This document shows, in pieces, positions 13,003 through 52,439 of a DNA stretch of 64,000 bases (its first letter is position 1; the number at the start of each line of letters is the position of its first letter). The notes beneath the pieces were generated by a model. That model saw only the letters and a list, made by a program, of their open reading frames with translations. It made no database searches and was not told where the DNA came from. Where the stretch lies: contig CAVPBK010000006.1 in the NCBI GenBank assembly GCA_963701855.1, forward strand, positions 672,001 through 736,000, in the 5' to 3' direction. The DNA is from Nitrospirota bacterium. GTDB lineage: Bacteria > Nitrospirota > Nitrospiria > Nitrospirales > Nitrospiraceae. Position numbers and translations under genes: made by a program.

Positions 13003-13425
13003 CCCGCGTAATGACAGAGCCGAAGCCGCTTTCCGTGGGTATCCGCCCAATACTGATTGGACGAACTCCGCCAGGAGCTGTACGCTCGTCTATCTGTAGC
13101 GATCTCCAAACAAAGAACCACTGCTCTCGATCCCACTAGCAAGCGGGATTGAAGAGGTCAATCGGTAACTGGTGGTGTAATCCTCCCCCGCCTGCACTAG
13201 TCCCAGAGATCGTCCTGTTCGGCTCTTCATTCAAGCCCGCATCTCTGCACTGCTTGATTGTTGTGGACCGGAAGGACCCTTCGGTTGAAACTCCCTTGCG
13301 GTAGCAGATTGATGCTGGTCAGGCTCACGATATGGGATCTGGAACAGGAATGAGGACCTATCGGAGACTCAGGACATCCATCATGTCATGGTGATGTGAA
13401 CATTAGGAAATAAGTCCGCTATCAG

Positions 13426-14126
13426 TTAGAAGTGGTAGCCGACGCCAGCGGCAAAGATGTTCACATTATAATTATACGACAGGTCAAACCCATTAACCCC
13501 CAGGAAATTATTGTGGTCGATATTCGCGTAATTGTATTTCCACTCTCCGAACAGTGAGAGATTCGGATTGACACGATACCTCAGCCCAAGTTGCGTGTTC
13601 AGTCCCACATCCGTACTTGAACTGGAATCAGTACCATCCGAAATACGGGAAAAGAACACCCCGAGCCCCACTCCAGCGTAGGGCTCGAACGCCCCTGCTT
13701 GATACCTGACTAATACGACCAATGGAGTCCAGGTCAAAACCCGATTAGTCAACCCTTGTAGCGTCCCTGTTGTGCCTACTGTATTAGCAATAAGGGCGGG
13801 GGAACGAGGATCTAGCGTAACCTCTTGCTGCTTAATATGAGGCGTTGAATTGAATACTTCGGTTTCGACGCCTAGATTGAAGTTCTGCCATTTCAGCGAA
13901 TCAAAATAGTATCCTGCCTTGGCTCCATACATCAGGGAGTTCTGTAACACGAGGTCACTCAATCCTAAGGTCCCTCTCCCTGCACTTAATTCCAGGTTGC
14001 TAGCGTCTTGGGGAATGTTCGCACCCACTTGACCCGCGACATACATCTCCGCCTGTAGGGGGAGTCCAGACAGAACATACCCATAGCAACAGAACACACT
14101 CCGAGCGTATAGCGTAAGTGTCTCAT
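13426..14126 (-). CDS. Outer-membrane beta-barrel protein; apparent 1-base frameshift in signal peptide
   Basis: YGAKAGYYF, EPYAGVGLG, FGEWKYN, C-terminal GVGYHF; AGGAGG RBS and ATG at 14126 join the barrel frame only with one extra C in the tract at 14058-14062. Confidence 0.8.
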
Positions 14127-14386
14127 CTCTCTCCTCCTAATGATCTCTCTCGAAAGAAAGCTGAAGCATCTTAAGAGAGAGAGTTAAGCAATTTATGTGC
14201 GTGGTTGGAACCAAGGCAGTTTCATTGAGAATGTCAATGGTGCGGCGTACCGATCGATGAAACAAACGAGAAGAATATGGTTCAGTGGAATCTAAAAGGG
14301 TACGTAGCAGGATCTATACTGATACAGACTGACCGTGGGGAAGGCTGTCAGATTGCGATGAAGAAAAATTGTGTTTGGGCGAGAGT

Positions 14387-14529
14387 TCAAATGATACTTG
14401 GAGCTGCTTCTCGGCACTTTGTGGGGGTCATGAGCTGGTCACTGCGGGCTATTGCGCGAAGTGTTGGAGGTGTCTACTGCGAGTGTGGCGCGGGGGTTAC
14501 GGTGAAGGTGGGACTTCGGCGGACTCGAC
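14387..14529 (-). repeat. Sel1-array 3' intergenic element R, copy 1
   Basis: Aligns by eye with 18056-18199, 17396-17499 and 19311-19415. Confidence 0.8.
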
Positions 14530-16305
14530 TCAGCAGCCTTTGAACTGCTGTGCCTGACACTGTTGCGCGAGTCGTTGGGCTTTTGCAACCTGTGCGGGAG
14601 TTAGTTGCTGGACGATAGCATCCCGACGTTGTGCGTACGTTATGTTCTTCCTGCCCTGTCTTAGAGATTGCTCAACCGCGAGGTTGTACCACATGTAAGC
14701 ACGCACCTTGTCCTGCTGCACACCGCGTCCATCGCGATACATATCGCCGAGTGAATCTTGCCCTCCCGCGTCTCCCTGCTCGGCAGATTTTCGTATCCAT
14801 TCCATCCCTTTTTTTTCGTCCTTCTGAACGCCCTTCCCATCAACGTAAAGATAGCCGAGGTTGTTCTGCGCATCCGAGGAGTTCTGGGCTGCGGCTTTTT
14901 CGTACCACTGCCGCGCCATCGCGTAATCCTGAGGCACGCCTTCTCCATTGTCATACAATACGCCGAGGTTGTACTGAGCGGCAGCATCCCCATGAACAGC
15001 GGCTTTCTCATACTTCTGCCATGCTATTGCGTAGTCCTGCGGCACGCCCTCTCCCAAGGCATACATCGTCCATAGAAGGACCTTCGCCTTCATGACCCCC
15101 TGGGCGGCGGCTTTCTCATACCATTGCCGTGCCATCGCGTAATCCTGCGGTACGCCCTGTCCCTTGACATACAGCGATCCGAGAAGGACCTGCGCGGTTG
15201 CATGTCCCTGGCTAGCGGCATCCTCCCACCACTGCCCTGCTGTCACGTAGTCCTGAGGAACACCTTGTCCCTTGCTATACAGCACCCCAAGGTTGAACTG
15301 CGCCTCCGCATAGCCTTGGGCTGCCGCTTGCTTGTACCATTGCCTGGCTATCATGTAGTCCTGTGGTACGCCCTTCCCGGAATAATACATCGTCCCCAGA
15401 TCGTACTGCGCCTTCGAGATGCCCTGGGCTGCCGCTTTCTCCCACCACTGTCGCGCCGTCTCGTAATCCTGCGGGACACCTTTCCCAAGGGCATAGAGCG
15501 ACCCAAGGTTGTACTGCGCCATTGCATCCTCCTGGGCTGCCGCTTTCTCAAACCATCCTCGCGCTTTCGCATAGTCTTGCGTGACACCCTGTCCAAAGGC
15601 ATACAGGGTCCCGAGGTGGTCCTGTGCCTCCGCGTCTCCCAGGGCTGCTCCCTTCTCCAACCATTGTCGCGCCGTCGGATAGTCTTGTTTGACACCCAAT
15701 CCGAAGTAATACAACCCCCCGAGGCGGAACAGTGCGCCCTCGTCCCCCTGGGCAGCAGCTTTTTCAAACCACTGCCGCGCTGTCGTATAGTCTTGTGGCA
15801 CACCCTGTCCGTCGCGATACAGCACCCCGAGATTGGACTGTGCCAACGCATTCCCCTGGGCTGCCGCTTTCTGGATCCACTTCGCCGCTTGGGCATAGTC
15901 CTGCGGCACACCCTTCCCCTTGGCATACAAAAACCCAAGGTGGTCCTGCGCCTCTGCATCCTCCTGGGCTGCCGCTTTTTCCCACCACTGCCGCGCTTTG
16001 ACATAGTCCTGCGGCACACCCTCTCCTTCGGCGAACAACAACCCAAGGGTAAACTGCGCCTTCGCGTAGCCCTGGGTTGCAGTTTTTTCAAACCATCCTC
16101 GCGCTTTCGCATAGTCTTGCGGCACACCCCGTCCAAGGTAATACAGTGCCCCGAGGGCGTGCTGCGCCAGCGCGTAGCCCTGGGCTGCCTGTGTTTTCAT
16201 CCTTTGAAGGTCTTCTGGTGAAACGTCGCTCGGTGGGGAACCTGACGCATGCCCAGAGGGGAGAACGAGTGCACTGAGAAGGACTATGACGAATAGGGCG
16301 CACAT
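14530..16305 (-). CDS. Exported Sel1-like repeat protein A (~14 repeats)
   Basis: Signal peptide; repeated AQxxLGxxYxxGxGVPQDYxxARxWxEKAAAQG; C-terminal QQCQAQQFKGC. Confidence 0.93.
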   Translation of the reverse strand: MCALFVIVLLSALVLPSGHASGSPPSDVSPEDLQRMKTQAAQGYALAQHALGALYYLGRGVPQDYAKARGWFEKTATQGYAKAQFTLGLLFAEGEGVPQDYVKARQWWEKAAAQEDAEAQDHLGFLYAKGKGVPQDYAQAAKWIQKAAAQGNALAQSNLGVLYRDGQGVPQDYTTARQWFEKAAAQGDEGALFRLGGLYYFGLGVKQDYPTARQWLEKGAALGDAEAQDHLGTLYAFGQGVTQDYAKARGWFEKAAAQEDAMAQYNLGSLYALGKGVPQDYETARQWWEKAAAQGISKAQYDLGTMYYSGKGVPQDYMIARQWYKQAAAQGYAEAQFNLGVLYSKGQGVPQDYVTAGQWWEDAASQGHATAQVLLGSLYVKGQGVPQDYAMARQWYEKAAAQGVMKAKVLLWTMYALGEGVPQDYAIAWQKYEKAAVHGDAAAQYNLGVLYDNGEGVPQDYAMARQWYEKAAAQNSSDAQNNLGYLYVDGKGVQKDEKKGMEWIRKSAEQGDAGGQDSLGDMYRDGRGVQQDKVRAYMWYNLAVEQSLRQGRKNITYAQRRDAIVQQLTPAQVAKAQRLAQQCQAQQFKGC

Positions 16306-16372
16306 AAAACACTATCGCCCTAGTATCTTAGACCGTCAAGGATTAGCGGATTGTTCGCTTTGCTGAATAGAT
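16306..16372 (-). promoter_or_regulatory. Upstream module U1 with leaderless-type sigma70 promoter
   Basis: TTGACG-17-GATAGT-5-ATG; close copy at 20433-20499. Confidence 0.6.
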
Positions 16373-16441
16373 CATCAACAAGGAGGCTTGTGAGGTGTGG
16401 CTGCAACGGAGGAAGAGCGAAAGCAGCAGCATTAAAGTACC

Positions 16442-17347
16442 TCAGCAGCCCTTGAACTGCCTTGCTTGACACTGTTGCGAGAGTCGCTGGGCTTCTGCAA
16501 TCTGTGCGGGTGTCATGCGGCGTGCGACCACGTCTCGATTGTTTGGTGCAGGATTCTGCTCATCGTCCATCGAGTGTGCAGCTGCGAGGTTGTACCACAT
16601 GTATGCACGCACATAGTCCTGCGGCACGCCATGTCCGTTGTCATACATCCACCCGAGGTTGTTTTGCGCTTTCACGTAGCCCTGCGCGGCGGCTTTCTCC
16701 CACCACTGCCGCGCTGTCGCGTAATCCTGTGGCACACCCTGCCCGAAGTTATACAGCACCCCGAGGCTGTTCTGCGCCCTCGTGTGCCCCTGTGCAGCGG
16801 CTTTCTCGAACCACTGCCGCGCTGCCGCGTAGTCTTGCGACGTGCCCCGCCCGAAGTCATACAGCACCCCGAGACCGAATTGCGCATCTGCGTCCCCCTG
16901 GGCAGCCGCTTTTTCATACCATTCATGCGCTTTCGCATAGTCCTGTGGCACGCCTCGCCCCCTGTCATACTGCACTCCGAGTGAGACCTGCGCCGTCGCA
17001 TACCCCTGAGCAGCCGCTTTCTCGTACCACTGCCGTGCCGTCGTGTAATCTTTCGGCACGCCTTGTCCCTTGGCATAAAGCACACCAAGATTATTCTGTG
17101 CTTCCGCGTAACCTTGTACTGCGGCTTTCTCCCACCACTGCCGTGCTGCCGCATAGTCCTGTGGCACACCCTGTCCATTGTAATACAGCAACCCGAGGGT
17201 GGTCTGCGCTTCCGCGACACCCTGGACTGCCTGTGTTTGCAGCGTTTGTATGTCTTCTAATGAAGTGTCGATCGGTGGGGAAACAGTTGCACATCCAGAG
17301 GAGAGAATGAGTGCGATGAGGAGAATTATGACGGAAAGAGAACGCAT
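16442..17347 (-). CDS. Sel1-like repeat lipoprotein B (6 repeats)
   Basis: Start MRSLSV; lipobox SSGC; Sel1 repeats; QQCQARQFKGC. Confidence 0.92.
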   Translation of the reverse strand: MRSLSVIILLIALILSSGCATVSPPIDTSLEDIQTLQTQAVQGVAEAQTTLGLLYYNGQGVPQDYAAARQWWEKAAVQGYAEAQNNLGVLYAKGQGVPKDYTTARQWYEKAAAQGYATAQVSLGVQYDRGRGVPQDYAKAHEWYEKAAAQGDADAQFGLGVLYDFGRGTSQDYAAARQWFEKAAAQGHTRAQNSLGVLYNFGQGVPQDYATARQWWEKAAAQGYVKAQNNLGWMYDNGHGVPQDYVRAYMWYNLAAAHSMDDEQNPAPNNRDVVARRMTPAQIAEAQRLSQQCQARQFKGC

Positions 17348-17499
17348 GGGAGCGCAGTATGGGCGCGGACCTCTGAGAGCGTCAATGGACACAATGGGGG
17401 GCATGGTCTGGTCGCTATGGATGATTGCTAAGAGTGTCGGCGTGTCTACTGCGAGTGTGGCGCAGGGGTTGCGGTAAAGAGAGAGCGGTAACCCCCAAC
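17348..17499 (-). repeat. Element R copy 2 plus promoter module U2
   Basis: Colinear with 19262-19415; TTGACG-18-CATACT-8-ATG. Confidence 0.8.
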
Positions 17500-17994
17500 T
17501 CAGCAGCCCTTGAACTTCCTTGACCGACACTGTTGTGCAAGTTGATTGGCTTCTGCAATCTGCGAGGGAGTCATGCGGCGTGCGACATCATCTCGATTTT
17601 CTACCGCTTGCTTCTGCTCGTCACCCGTCATGTCTGCGGCTGCAAGGTTCACCCACATATACGCCCGCACATCGTCCTGTGGTACGCCCAGTCCCGCGTA
17701 ATACATTTCCGCGAGGTTGTTCTGCGCGAGCGCGTGACCCTGAGCAGCGGCTTTCTCGTACCACTGACGCGCTTGCGAATAATCCTGCGGCACGCCTTGT
17801 CCATTGGCATACAGCATCCCGAGGTTGGTCTGCGCCTCCGCATTCCCTTGGGCTGCAAGCGATTGAAATGTTTTCAACGCAGTCGCGTAGTCACCGCGTT
17901 TATTTGCAGCCGTAGCATCTTCCAGTGGACCTGCCCACACCGTACCAGCAGTCAGCAAGAGTGCAGTACCTATAGAAGGTAAGAGTCGTGTCAT
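17500..17994 (-). CDS. Exported Sel1-like repeat protein C (2 repeats plus N-cap)
   Basis: Signal peptide, GPLEDA...GDYATAL cap, two repeats, QQCRSRKFKGC. Confidence 0.9.
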   Translation of the reverse strand: MTRLLPSIGTALLLTAGTVWAGPLEDATAANKRGDYATALKTFQSLAAQGNAEAQTNLGMLYANGQGVPQDYSQARQWYEKAAAQGHALAQNNLAEMYYAGLGVPQDDVRAYMWVNLAAADMTGDEQKQAVENRDDVARRMTPSQIAEANQLAQQCRSRKFKGC

Positions 17995-18055
17995 TGTAAT
18001 GCCTTTGTAAGAGATCGTAGGAACTGAGGCAGTGTGCTCCGTTTGAAGGGGGCGG

Positions 18056-18199
18056 TCAAATGAAACTTGGAGCGGCTTCGCGGCACTTTGTGGAGGGGCA
18101 AGAGTTGGTCGCTACGGATGATTGCAAAGAGTGTTGGCGTGTTTATTGCGCGGGGTGGTGCGGGTACTGGGGTAAAGATGAGGCTTCGATGGAGCCTAC
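18056..18199 (-). repeat. Element R copy 3
   Basis: Shares extension TCAAATGA.ACTTGGAGC.GCTTC.CGGCACTTTGTGG with copy 1. Confidence 0.8.
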
Positions 18200-19261
18200 T
18201 CAGCATCCCGTGAGCCCCTGCGCCTGGCACTGTTGCGCGAGTCGCTGGGCTTCTGCAATCTGTGCGGGTGTCATGCGGCGTGTGAGTGCCCCATCTCGAT
18301 TGGTTGCTATGGACTTCTGCTTGTTACCCGTCGAGTGGGCGACTGCAAGTGTGTACCATATATATGCCCTCACATCGTCCTTCGGCACGCCGTCTCCAGT
18401 GGCATACATGAGCCCGAGGCTGAACTGTGCATCCGCGTCCCGCTTCGCTGCCGCTTTCTCGTACCACTTCGTCGCTTCCTCATAGTTCTGTGGCACGCCG
18501 AGCGCAAAGTGATACAGCTGCCCGAGCTTGAACTGCGCCCCAGCATAGCCCTGGGCTGCGGCTTTCTCGTACCACTGTCGCGCCTTCGCATAGTCCTGCG
18601 GCACGCTATATCCCTGGGCATATCGCAATGCGAGGCTGAACTGCGCATCCGCGTTCCCCTGAGCTGCCGCTTTCTCGTACCACTTCGTCGCTTCCGTGTA
18701 ATTCCGTGGGACGCCGTCTCCCTTTTCATACAGCGAACCGAGGTAGAACTGCGCATTCGTGTTCCCTTGCGCCGCCGCTTTCTCGTACCATCCCCGCGCA
18801 TCCGCGCTGCCCTGGGCTGCCGCTTTCTCATACCACTGTCGCGCCTTCGGGAAATCTTGCGGGACGCCCTGTCCATGGGCATACATTTCACCAAGGATGT
18901 ACGACGCATTCGCTCTTCCCTGCGCGGCGGCTTTTTCGTACCACTCTCGTGCCATTATGTAATCCTGAGGCACCCCATGTCCATTGGCATAGAGCAGACC
19001 GAGGTTAAACTGTGCTGCCGCGTGATTCTGTGCGGCGGCTTGTTCGTACCACTGCCGCGCGACCACATAATCCTGGGGCACCCCATCCCCGAGGTCATAC
19101 AGTAGCCCGAGGTTGTTCTGCGCCAATGCGTTGCCTTGGGCTGCCCGTGTGCGCAGCATTTGCAGTTCATCTGCTGAAATGTTGATCGGTGGGGAAGCTG
19201 ACGCATATCCAGAGGAGAAAAGAAATGCAGCCAAAATCGTTATGGCGGAGAGGACGCGCAT
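18200..19261 (-). CDS. Exported Sel1-like repeat protein D (7 repeats plus a half repeat)
   Basis: Start MRVLSA; Sel1 repeats; QQCQAQGLTGC. Confidence 0.92.
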   Translation of the reverse strand: MRVLSAITILAAFLFSSGYASASPPINISADELQMLRTRAAQGNALAQNNLGLLYDLGDGVPQDYVVARQWYEQAAAQNHAAAQFNLGLLYANGHGVPQDYIMAREWYEKAAAQGRANASYILGEMYAHGQGVPQDFPKARQWYEKAAAQGSADARGWYEKAAAQGNTNAQFYLGSLYEKGDGVPRNYTEATKWYEKAAAQGNADAQFSLALRYAQGYSVPQDYAKARQWYEKAAAQGYAGAQFKLGQLYHFALGVPQNYEEATKWYEKAAAKRDADAQFSLGLMYATGDGVPKDDVRAYIWYTLAVAHSTGNKQKSIATNRDGALTRRMTPAQIAEAQRLAQQCQAQGLTGC

Positions 19262-19415
19262 GGGAACGCAGTATGGGGGCGGAACCCAGAGACCGTCAAT
19301 GACACAATCAGGGGGCATGGGATGGTCGTTATGGGCGCTTGCGAAGAGTGTCGGCGTGTCTACTGGGAGTGCGGCGCAGGCGGTGCGGTAAAAATGAGAT
19401 TTCGGCGGACCTTTC
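19262..19415 (-). repeat. Element R copy 4 plus promoter module U2
   Basis: Colinear with 17348-17499; TTGACG-18-CATACT-8-ATG. Confidence 0.8.
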
Positions 19416-20432
19416 TCAGCAACCTTTGAACTGCCGTGCCTCACACTGTTGCACGAGTCGCTGGGCTTCTGCTATCTCCCCTGGAGTCAGCCTGCGGGCG
19501 ACAATATCTAGATTTTCTGCTGCTAATTTCTGGTCCTCACCCATCGAGTGAGCTACTGAAAGACTCCACCACATGTATGCCCGCACATAGTTCCGCTGCA
19601 CGCCCCGCCCTAAGCCGTACAGCGTCCCGAGGTTGTTCTGCGCCTTCGCATCCCCCTGCGCGGCGGCTTTCTCAAACCACTGCCTCGCCTCGACGTAATT
19701 CTGTGGCACCCCGTGTCCATCGAGATACAGATTCCCGAGCATTCGCTGCCCCTCTGCGCCCCCCTGGGCTGCCGCTTTCTCATACCATCCTCGTGCTTTC
19801 GCATAGTCCTGCGGCACGCCATTCCCGCCAGATGAATAGATCTCCCCGAGGTTGACCTGCGCTGACGCGATGCCCTGGGCTGCCGACTTCTCGTACCACT
19901 TCGTCGCTTGGGCAAAGTCCTGTGGGACGCCGTGTCCCTGGACATATAGACCCCCGAGGTTGTGCTGTGCCATCGGATGTCCCTGGGCTGCCGCTTTTTC
20001 TAACCATAGCTTCGATTGTCCGTAATCCCGCTGAACGCCATATCCCTTGTAGTGCAGGACTGCGAGGAAGAATTGCGCCTCTGCGTCCCCCTGAGCTGCC
20101 GCTTTCTCATACCATCCTCGTGCTTTCGTATAGTCCTTCGGCACGCCTTCTCCAAAGACATAGAGCGTAGCAAGTTTGAACTGTGCCTTTGGATTGCCTC
20201 GGGCTGCTGCTTTCCCAAACCACACCCGTGCCTTGGCATAGTCCTGCGGGACACCACCTCCTTCGTAATACAGCGACCCGAGCTTGACCTGTGCCTCCGC
20301 ATTCCCTCGGACTGCCTGTGTTTGTAGTGCTCGTAAGCCTTTTGCTGAAATGTCGCTCGGCGGGGAGCCTAACGCATACCCAGAGGGGAGAACGAATGCA
20401 GCGAGGAGAATCATGACGAATACGGCACGCAT
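19416..20432 (-). CDS. Exported Sel1-like repeat protein E (7 repeats)
   Basis: Signal peptide similar to gene A; Sel1 repeats; QQCEARQFKGC. Confidence 0.92.
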   Translation of the reverse strand: MRAVFVMILLAAFVLPSGYALGSPPSDISAKGLRALQTQAVRGNAEAQVKLGSLYYEGGGVPQDYAKARVWFGKAAARGNPKAQFKLATLYVFGEGVPKDYTKARGWYEKAAAQGDAEAQFFLAVLHYKGYGVQRDYGQSKLWLEKAAAQGHPMAQHNLGGLYVQGHGVPQDFAQATKWYEKSAAQGIASAQVNLGEIYSSGGNGVPQDYAKARGWYEKAAAQGGAEGQRMLGNLYLDGHGVPQNYVEARQWFEKAAAQGDAKAQNNLGTLYGLGRGVQRNYVRAYMWWSLSVAHSMGEDQKLAAENLDIVARRLTPGEIAEAQRLVQQCEARQFKGC

Positions 20433-20499
20433 AAACCACTTTCGCCCTAGTGCCTTGGACCGTCAAGGAATAACGGATTGTTCGCATTGCTGAGTAGAT
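20433..20499 (-). promoter_or_regulatory. Upstream module U1, second copy
   Basis: TTGACG-17-GAAAGT-5-ATG; matches 16306-16372. Confidence 0.6.
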
Positions 20500-20805
20500 A
20501 CTCAAGCAGAAAACTATGACGTTGCTGTGGGTTCGAGTCGTGTCCTTCCCCACCAGAATAGTGCCCTGTTCGCAGCAGCAAGCTGTCTAAATCATCTACT
20601 GAAGTCTGTCAGAGATAGACCTCGCGTTGGCGATTGGAGCGGCGCGTAGAGGCTCTGCGAAGGGGCTTGAGGATACTGTGCGGTGTGGCAAATGCTAAAG
20701 TATTAGTCAGGACGGGAACGGTGAGAATAATGAATGAGAGTGACACACTCGTTACACACTTACTTTTTATAAATACAAGTCATTGAAATGTAACTTACAA
20801 TATGC

Positions 20806-21612
20806 CTATGCTTTTAGTCCTAACACATCCATCATGTCATACAGGCCTGGTGGCTGCCGAACCACCCATCGAGCGGCACGCAGGGCGCCTCCCGCGAAGG
20901 TATCTCGGCTACTCGCTCGATGCGTCACTTCGATACGTTCACCCATTCCACCGAAGAGGATCGTGTGGTCGCCGACAATGTCTCCGGCACGGATCGTTTG
21001 AATCCCGATCTCACCCTTCTTTCGTTCCCCGATAAGACCTTTTCTGGCATAGACGCCGACCTGATCCAGATCGCGACTCACGGCTTTCGCCAAGACCTCC
21101 GCAATCTTGAGCGCCGTCCCGCTCGGGGCATCTTTTTTTAGGCGATGATGGGCTTCAATCACTTCAATGTCGTAGTCGTCCCCCAGCGTTTTCGCCATCT
21201 CACTAATGACCTTATAGATCAGATTGATACCCACGCTCATGTTGGGGGACAACACGCAGGGAACTTGGCAGGCCAGCGATTTCAGCTCTTCGAGCTGAGG
21301 AGTGGAAAACCCCGTCGTGCCGATTACCATGGCTCGCCGATATTGCGCCGCCGTGCGTAAATGATCCAGGGTCGCTTCAGGAGCGGAGAAGTCGACAACC
21401 ACTTCGCCTCTGTCGAGGAGCGCCGCGAAATCATCGGTGATCGAAATGCCTGCGCGGCCACAGCCCGCTGTTTCCCCGGCATCGTCACCCACGGCGTGAT
21501 GACCCTTCCCTTCAATGGCACCGGTCAACATCAGGGTGGTCGAGTCTTTGATAAGCGCAACCAGACGACAGCCCATGCGACCGGCTGCCCCTGCGACAAT
21601 GACGTTGATCAT
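20806..21612 (-). CDS. dapB: 4-hydroxy-tetrahydrodipicolinate reductase
   Basis: GAAGRMG, IGTTG, EAHHRLKKDAPSGTA, GDIVGDH. Confidence 0.97.
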   Translation of the reverse strand: MINVIVAGAAGRMGCRLVALIKDSTTLMLTGAIEGKGHHAVGDDAGETAGCGRAGISITDDFAALLDRGEVVVDFSAPEATLDHLRTAAQYRRAMVIGTTGFSTPQLEELKSLACQVPCVLSPNMSVGINLIYKVISEMAKTLGDDYDIEVIEAHHRLKKDAPSGTALKIAEVLAKAVSRDLDQVGVYARKGLIGERKKGEIGIQTIRAGDIVGDHTILFGGMGERIEVTHRASSRDTFAGGALRAARWVVRQPPGLYDMMDVLGLKA

Positions 21613-52363: not shown

Positions 52364-52439
52364 TGGTGCGCCCGGAGGGACTTGAACCCCCAACCCTCGG
52401 ATCCGAAGTCCGGTACTCTATCCATTGAGCTACGGGCGC
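52364..52439 (-). tRNA. tRNA-Arg(TCG)
   Basis: GCGCCCG TA GCTC AATGGATA GAGT A CCGGA CTTCGGA TCCGA GGGTT GGGGG TTCAAGT CCCTC CGGGCGC ACCA cloverleaf. Confidence 0.95.

Follow-up and report, generated by a model that had tools for sequence, protein, structure and literature searches.

A Sel1-repeat gene array at the dapB 3' end of a Nitrospirota genome as a probable remnant of an integrative element

The array and its genes

The window analysed here is a stretch of 64,000 nucleotides from a Nitrospirota bacterium (assembly GCA_963701855.1, contig CAVPBK010000006.1, positions 672,001 to 736,000), in which five Sel1-repeat open reading frames (ORFs), in transcription order E, D, C, B and A, lie on the minus strand at the 3' end of a gene which we take to be dapB (this name, like aat and ybgC below, is a tentative assignment from the sequence and not a family call). 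Comparison with the empty site of a relative, G015 (G and L numbers designate the compared genomes and loci; G000 is the genome of the window), delimits an insert of 7,451 bp between exact 16-bp repeats, in which a beta-barrel gene accompanies the five Sel1 genes (Table 1). An earlier note on this DNA had described the five genes in this order together with the modules U1, U2, U3 and R around them, which was confirmed. It had the array in the right place but missed the island frame bounded by dapB, as the true extent is 13374-20840, adding the barrel gene and both attachment site (att) repeats.

Table 1. Features of the dapB island, in the order of transcription (positions in the window)
Feature	Position	Strand	Remarks
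dapB (target gene)	20806..21612	-	final codons and stop supplied by the island
Left att copy	20825..20840	-	exact 16-bp repeat within dapB 3' end
Left arm of element	20691..20824	-	AT-rich; 10-bp direct repeat 20740-20760; common to the intact G075 element
Left-end modules Lend, U0	20510..20679	-	common to elements at other sites
U1 promoter-like module before E	20433..20510	-	similarity to U1 before A
Gene E	19416..20432	-	338 aa, hydrophobic N-terminus, 7 Sel1 stretches, Cx7C tail
R copy after E	19311..19415	-	sequence similarity
U2 promoter-like module before D	19262..19308	-	TTGACG-18-CATACT
Gene D	18200..19261	-	353 aa, 7 Sel1 stretches; closely similar genes at several sites (G071, G093, G075, G015)
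R copy after D with extension Rx	18056..18199	-	sequence similarity
U3 module before C	17995..18056	-	elsewhere upstream of Adhesin_E and Mrr genes
Gene C	17500..17994	-	164 aa, 2 Sel1 stretches; other genomes have 18 relatives of equal length, most of them at a different site
R copy after C	17397..17499	-	sequence similarity
U2 promoter-like module before B	17348..17395	-	similarity to U2 before D
Gene B	16442..17347	-	301 aa, 6 Sel1 stretches; all-helical solenoid in the predicted fold (pLDDT 90)
Unique spacer	16381..16441	-	no homologue among compared loci
U1 promoter-like module before A	16306..16380	-	TTGACG-17-GATAGT
Gene A	14530..16305	-	591 aa, 13 Sel1 stretches (Pfam)
R copy after A with extension Rx	14387..14529	-	sequence similarity
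Upstream region of barrel gene	14098..14386	-	common to G093, G075, L106
Outer-membrane beta-barrel gene (PF13505)	13426..14097	-	belongs to the island
Right att copy	13374..13389	-	original dapB end follows; neither arm repeats nor an integrase adjoin

All five Sel1 proteins consist of tandem 36-residue helical repeats, possess a hydrophobic N-terminus and end in a terminal Cx7C motif, with cysteines confined to this tail except for one extra each in the leaders of A and B. While the Cx7C tail is common to all five, the 11-residue form QQCQAQQFKGC that had been quoted for it is an exact match in A only. Because of the hydrophobic N-termini, the fold of B and its resemblance to solved Sel1 proteins, the gene products are predicted to be exported helical binding scaffolds. 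The array genes are all on one strand, the region holds no inverted repeat pair of at least 25 nt, and a 44-bp patch common to the tails of B and D is its longest exact repeat. The barrel gene is apparently frameshifted near its start (window 13426-14126); relative to the window, the metagenome runs X1, X2, X3 and X8 carry one extra base at 14066 and X1, X4, X6 and X11 one base fewer at 13470; the frameshift is either an assembly error or decay.

The modular build of the array is borne out by comparison with shuffled sequences. The U1 copies before E and A are 85% identical over 73 nt (z 38) and the U2 copies before D and B 85% over 48 nt (z 26), with z of at most 4.6 for the remaining eight upstream pairs, while R is recognized downstream of E, D, C and A (72-87% identity, z 10-45) and not downstream of B (z around 0). 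The copies after D and A share the extension Rx, as had been noted; the former C-type gene after A that was deduced from it is not needed, as the extension enters the DNA upstream of the barrel gene in G093, G071 and L106. Likewise, the suggestion that each gene has its own promoter-like site held in part: a scan, which found 10 sites across the region versus 3.9 in shuffles, detected sites before D, B and A (3/5 genes), while those before E and C, with 8/12 matches, were recognized by eye only.

An insertion hot spot at the dapB 3' end

The left arm of the island carries 10-bp direct repeats that are candidate integrase arm sites. At the right end, the flank of the barrel gene abuts the att copy directly, which suggests that the integrase end has likely been deleted; lacking the right arm, the island's own ends are expected to support excision only poorly. 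No tRNA lies at the insertion site, and no recombinase is visible in the window, as the earlier note had stated, with none of the 22 Phage_integrase matches of the genome falling there.

In relatives the site is a fixed hot spot, empty or otherwise filled. In all 19 scorable relatives of an initial set (20 loci from 24 same-genus genomes, one contig ending early), dapB and the YHS gene are 0.66-0.86 kb apart without a Sel1 match. The left arm was found at dapB in G090, G075, G093 and G041 and in 13 of 18 metagenome loci identified by their junction pattern, 7 of the 18 with R, where the cargo is as diverse as restriction and Cas-like genes (some of these labels being tentative). Immediately beyond the dapB left arm, L099 and L092 carry a gene set that resembles type I-E CRISPR-Cas, a tentative assignment from the sequences and not a family call.

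A whole element of 6.1 kb is present at the dapB site of G075 and, identically, in L103. It consists of left arm, cargo, an RHH gene, a serine resolvase, a 415-aa tyrosine integrase (phrog_1, E 6e-14; PF00589 match below cut-off), arm repeats and the second att; a further ORF, which we take to be Rep-like, has no Pfam or PHROG match. This integrase occurs in 2 of 85 genomes of the genus and was not found in G000, and a wider search with the single query, which finds close kin only, recovered one locus (itself) among genome contigs and none among viral contigs. A 67% identical relative of the integrase is encoded in L125 (G085 C4), where no dapB core adjoins, and therefore has a different target. 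The G075 integrase and the dapB 3' end form an integrase/target pair that is new to the literature searched, in which dapB was not found as an integration target; the supplements of island catalogues may list it.

The same units at other sites and in other orders

In relatives the units are found in other orders, at dapB itself and elsewhere. The dapB site of G093 reads left arm, part of R, barrel gene, R, U2, D and att, with the barrel gene before D, the reverse of the order in the window, and L100 at dapB begins R-U3-C. At other sites, G015 carries D followed by a broken C, and G071 R-U2-D-R at 88% identity. The modules also cluster after aat, at a site similar to the 5' end of tRNA-Lys(TTT), where repeated target ends in G055, G091 and G048 mark tandem additions, and beside ybgC; the genome of the window has copies at both of these sites.

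In G000, the cluster beside ybgC (C6:1230751-1232124) comprises a left-end module, a PilZ-like gene, a partial R, a DUF2628-like gene, a Sel1 tail remnant, R-Rx-U3 and Adhesin_E-like genes, and near-identical cargo occupies dapB in G090, while a solo Sel1 gene (C6:1271701-1272682) lies after aat, preceded by an att-like repeat of the 5' end of tRNA-Lys(TTT). In L075:1935-4403 (G075 C28) an element at the tRNA-Lys 5' end encodes an Arm-DNA-bind_3 tyrosine integrase next to the same left-end modules. Sel1 repeats with the same tail are fused to an Adhesin_E-like N-terminal part in L095:7764-9017 and to another N-terminal domain in L088:6496-7836.

The divergence of the genes points in the same direction as their order. 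In trees built from 40 of 53 rows (those left out lack a full start or encode fewer than 150 aa), D and C each cluster with outside copies, belonging to other genomes, at a support of 100/98-100. The synonymous divergence (dS) of D from its copies in G093 and G075 is 0.28-0.29, versus 0.60-0.61 for dapB, and foreign sequence forms the 5' end of D in G075 and the tail of D in G015. By this measure and the trees, cassettes are shared across species apart from the core phylogeny. The D and C orthologues are on average under purifying selection, because their mean ratio of non-synonymous to synonymous divergence (dN/dS) is below 1 (0.19-0.35 for D and 0.26 for C; 0.04-0.07 for dapB). The diversifying repertoire of exported binding proteins that the earlier note proposed is a conjecture.

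These results bear on the proposal that a single Sel1 gene arrived as part of the island and gave rise to the others by duplication in place, with deletions and gene conversion subsequently scrambling the order. Such a history would account for E and A being sisters at their 5' ends (96/79), a grouping not recovered at the 3' ends, for the 44-bp patch in the B and D tails and for the R copies of the array being more alike (0.73) than the 4-fold sites of their genes (0.53). However, D and C have nearer kin in other genomes and at other sites than in the array, and the combinations D-then-C in G015 and barrel-then-D in G093 exist outside of it. Already weakened by the trees, duplication in place is a quite unlikely origin of the array.

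The R element

R is nearly confined to the genus, with copies in 37 of 84 other genomes of the genus versus 2 of 286 other genomes of the family (two candidates scored per genome). Among 79 distinct copies from 86 sequences searched, 37 stand behind a Sel1 tail and 39 behind other DNA, which falls into 23 classes; three were dropped at contig ends. Genes beside R elsewhere include restriction, Adhesin_E, PilZ and DUF2628 genes, and all but 4 of 39 Rx copies have R upstream of them.

This distribution would be expected if R were the site at which an undescribed cassette system recombines, in which an enzyme acting in trans inserts and excises units of promoter plus gene, and 12 of 36 break estimates, which range over positions 2 to 45 of R, do heap at positions 37-43. 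The other 24 are scattered over 2-35 and 44-45, though, so that the heap may be a hot spot or merely mark the edge where conservation sets in, and the linkage of R to its upstream DNA (pairs not independent) fades gradually without a sharp switch. Furthermore, indels of any length are many in R, its consensus structure contains no pair, folds of both strands gave 0 of 40 below z -2 (mean z +0.35 to +0.71), and none of 19 matches exceeds the cut-off of the integron integrase model IntI (TIGR02249). We therefore consider a dedicated R-site system unlikely; if true, it would be a new cassette system. No more probable is a more specific version, in which the R core would be a hairpin-free, integron-like exchange handle of the Nitrospira genus with foreign genes plugged in near position 40, between portable promoter modules, and spread on small integrative elements targeting dapB and tRNA-Lys-like sites. 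R is more likely a shared stretch used by homology-driven exchange than a true recombination site.

The identities of the R cores, with gaps counted, are informative in this respect. Within C pairs the core is 0.69 identical versus 0.79 at 4-fold sites, while between C and X types it is 0.66 versus 0.47, with 0.39 in shuffles. As the 0.66 between types exceeds the 0.47 of the 4-fold sites, the similarity of R is uncoupled from the gene it follows, as expected under exchange.

Other identities of R were considered. A structured RNA or single-stranded DNA was ruled out by the null results for fold and consensus, and decayed coding sequence by indels of any length and a conservation profile that, by eye, lacks a codon period; neutral DNA was dropped, gapped identity being inflated (0.61 in shuffles). 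Internal repetition is short and restricted to a 21-bp period, no inverted repeat was found in R and no terminator by scan, and an Rfam scan of 11-22 kb returned a single chance-level match.

Population contigs

Contigs of about 99% identity from eight metagenome runs of several studies bridge the junctions barrel-A, A-B, B-C, C-U3-R, D-E and E-dapB. They bear on the concern that the scrambled order is an assembly artefact of a repeat-rich region. No single contig spans the whole island; however, the repeats are only 60-85% alike and the gene junctions recur in assemblies from different studies, which makes misassembly of the order extremely improbable.

The same runs provide a view on whether the array varies in living populations, with recombination between Sel1 repeats producing cells that differ in repeat number or in gene order. 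Joints with fewer than 30 letters on one side were set aside and runs with small shares were not used. In run X6 a contig joins 15547 to 16088, skipping five repeats of A, and in X11 19767 is joined to 20095, skipping three repeats of E. Both joints preserve the reading frame and fall on exact 34-bp repeats. Each joint is nevertheless a single low-depth contig, with the full form in other runs, at repeats that barely exceed the assembly word size, presumably 31, and are hence prone to misjoins; the two losses may be genuine or the product of misjoins. Gene order showed no well-supported change in the eight runs, where contigs drop rare variants so that low-level shuffling may be missed, and altered repeat number leaves the module order unexplained. 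As an explanation of the array, variation from cell to cell is very unlikely. One contig of X9, in which the R core is of the C type and the tail of the A type, with other letters in between, likely represents a relative's locus. An X8 contig that joins 13372 to 20824 is an empty site that may belong to any strain and was hence not counted as excision.

Origin of the mixed order

Cumulatively, these results argue for an island that is, with good probability, what an integrative element left stranded after losing its integrase end, and whose mixed order likely derives from a genus-wide pool of units exchanged by homology. A tyrosine integrase would have made the first insertion at the dapB 3' end, later elements would have added or replaced cargo, crossovers may have occurred at scattered points of the stretches that units have in common (tail, R and U), and deletions would have removed the integrase end. 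Each unit likely carries its own promoter, which would allow expression in any position. The mixed order has likely accrued over evolutionary time by unit swaps among relatives and not by present-day shuffling. The earlier proposal that self-contained units are reshuffled is upheld in that the units are modular and mobile and the similarity of R is uncoupled from the preceding gene; a system that shuffles them in place is unsupported, because R has neither a fold nor a fixed crossover, exact repeats are short and contigs keep the gene junctions.

Several observations weigh against this origin by homologous exchange of units on integrative elements. The longest exact match between R copies, 22 bp, is thin for homologous recombination, and the breaks at 37-43 could also reflect a site-specific step. 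The island contains no inner att copy, so that tandem addition at dapB itself lacks its mark, and no intact element uniting Sel1 genes, R and the dapB integrase was found, the cargo of the G075 element being different. The dS contrast rests on dapB as the single core gene, and in G015 the values for D (0.19) and dapB (0.17) are alike. The counts of loci are biased, as loci were chosen by module matches. With respect to the entry route, ComEC had no match in the genome, which is not proof of absence; natural transformation as the route is unsupported.

The genome of the window (4.3 Mb, 97% complete) possesses an AMO-family gene, its host is likely a complete ammonia oxidiser, and close metagenome matches to the island are from soil, with no RNA data set listed among them. 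What was an odd gene array hence becomes a mapped gene-exchange hot spot in a likely soil complete ammonia oxidiser, with portable promoter and spacer modules that recur genus-wide around exported and defence genes. Elsewhere in the window, a tRNA-Arg(TCG) at 52364-52439 lies amid many short ORFs at 32-63 kb, a region that is possibly another island.

Comparison with known systems

Integrons are characterized by the integrase IntI, an attC-type hairpin and mostly promoterless cassettes. The arrays described here resemble them as short genes for exported or defence proteins are split by a recurring non-coding element, but differ in the lack of an IntI match above cut-off, of a hairpin or inverted repeat in R, and in the promoter-like sites that the scan places before three of the five genes. 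A shufflon or invertase switch is distinguished by inverted recombination sites and an invertase gene, neither of which is present in the island. The literature searched, with incomplete coverage, did not contain the recurring R element or this module pool; it yielded nothing on Sel1 in clade B of the complete ammonia oxidisers and unrelated papers only on Nitrospira, Sel1 and genomic islands.

The slr/Hcp family of Helicobacter, in the account consulted in part (PMC1941758), is a lineage-specific expansion of secreted Sel1-repeat proteins in which each repeat is disulfide-bridged. The expansion of Sel1-repeat proteins, here predicted to be exported, is similarly lineage-specific, while the single terminal Cx7C, the clustering of the genes in islands and an average dN/dS well under 1 set it apart from the family as portrayed there. 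Integrases that target a protein-coding gene are known from the dusA-associated group (PMC4482086, in the portion available), with which the dapB island shares insertion at a specific site of a core protein gene and the restoration of that gene by the inserted DNA; the gene and the gene end are different.

The additive flexible genomic islands of Alteromonas, as far as outlined in PMC4898812, occupy site-directed hot spots marked by a repeat of the target's end, carry cassettes that are shared across species and vary between relatives in cassette number, nature and order. The hot spot, the target-end repeat and the shared cassettes are also found here, so that the dapB island agrees with most of that outline; it differs from the islands described there in that the target is the dapB 3' end and not a tRNA, and in that the cassettes are paralogues sharing promoter and spacer modules. 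The island is thus mostly of a known kind, an additive flexible genomic island, with a dapB target and a recurring R that do not appear in the literature searched.

Finally, the tycheposons of Prochlorococcus, according to the part of the preprint available (bioRxiv 10.1101/2020.12.28.424599), are small elements with a tyrosine recombinase, a small serine recombinase, a regulator and cargo, which are rare and transient while their remnants persist. Compared with that description, the target here is not a tRNA, no replication family is matched and the island of the window is without mobility genes, while the layout of the G075 element is shared. The dapB island fits the model of transient integrative elements that leave lasting islands.

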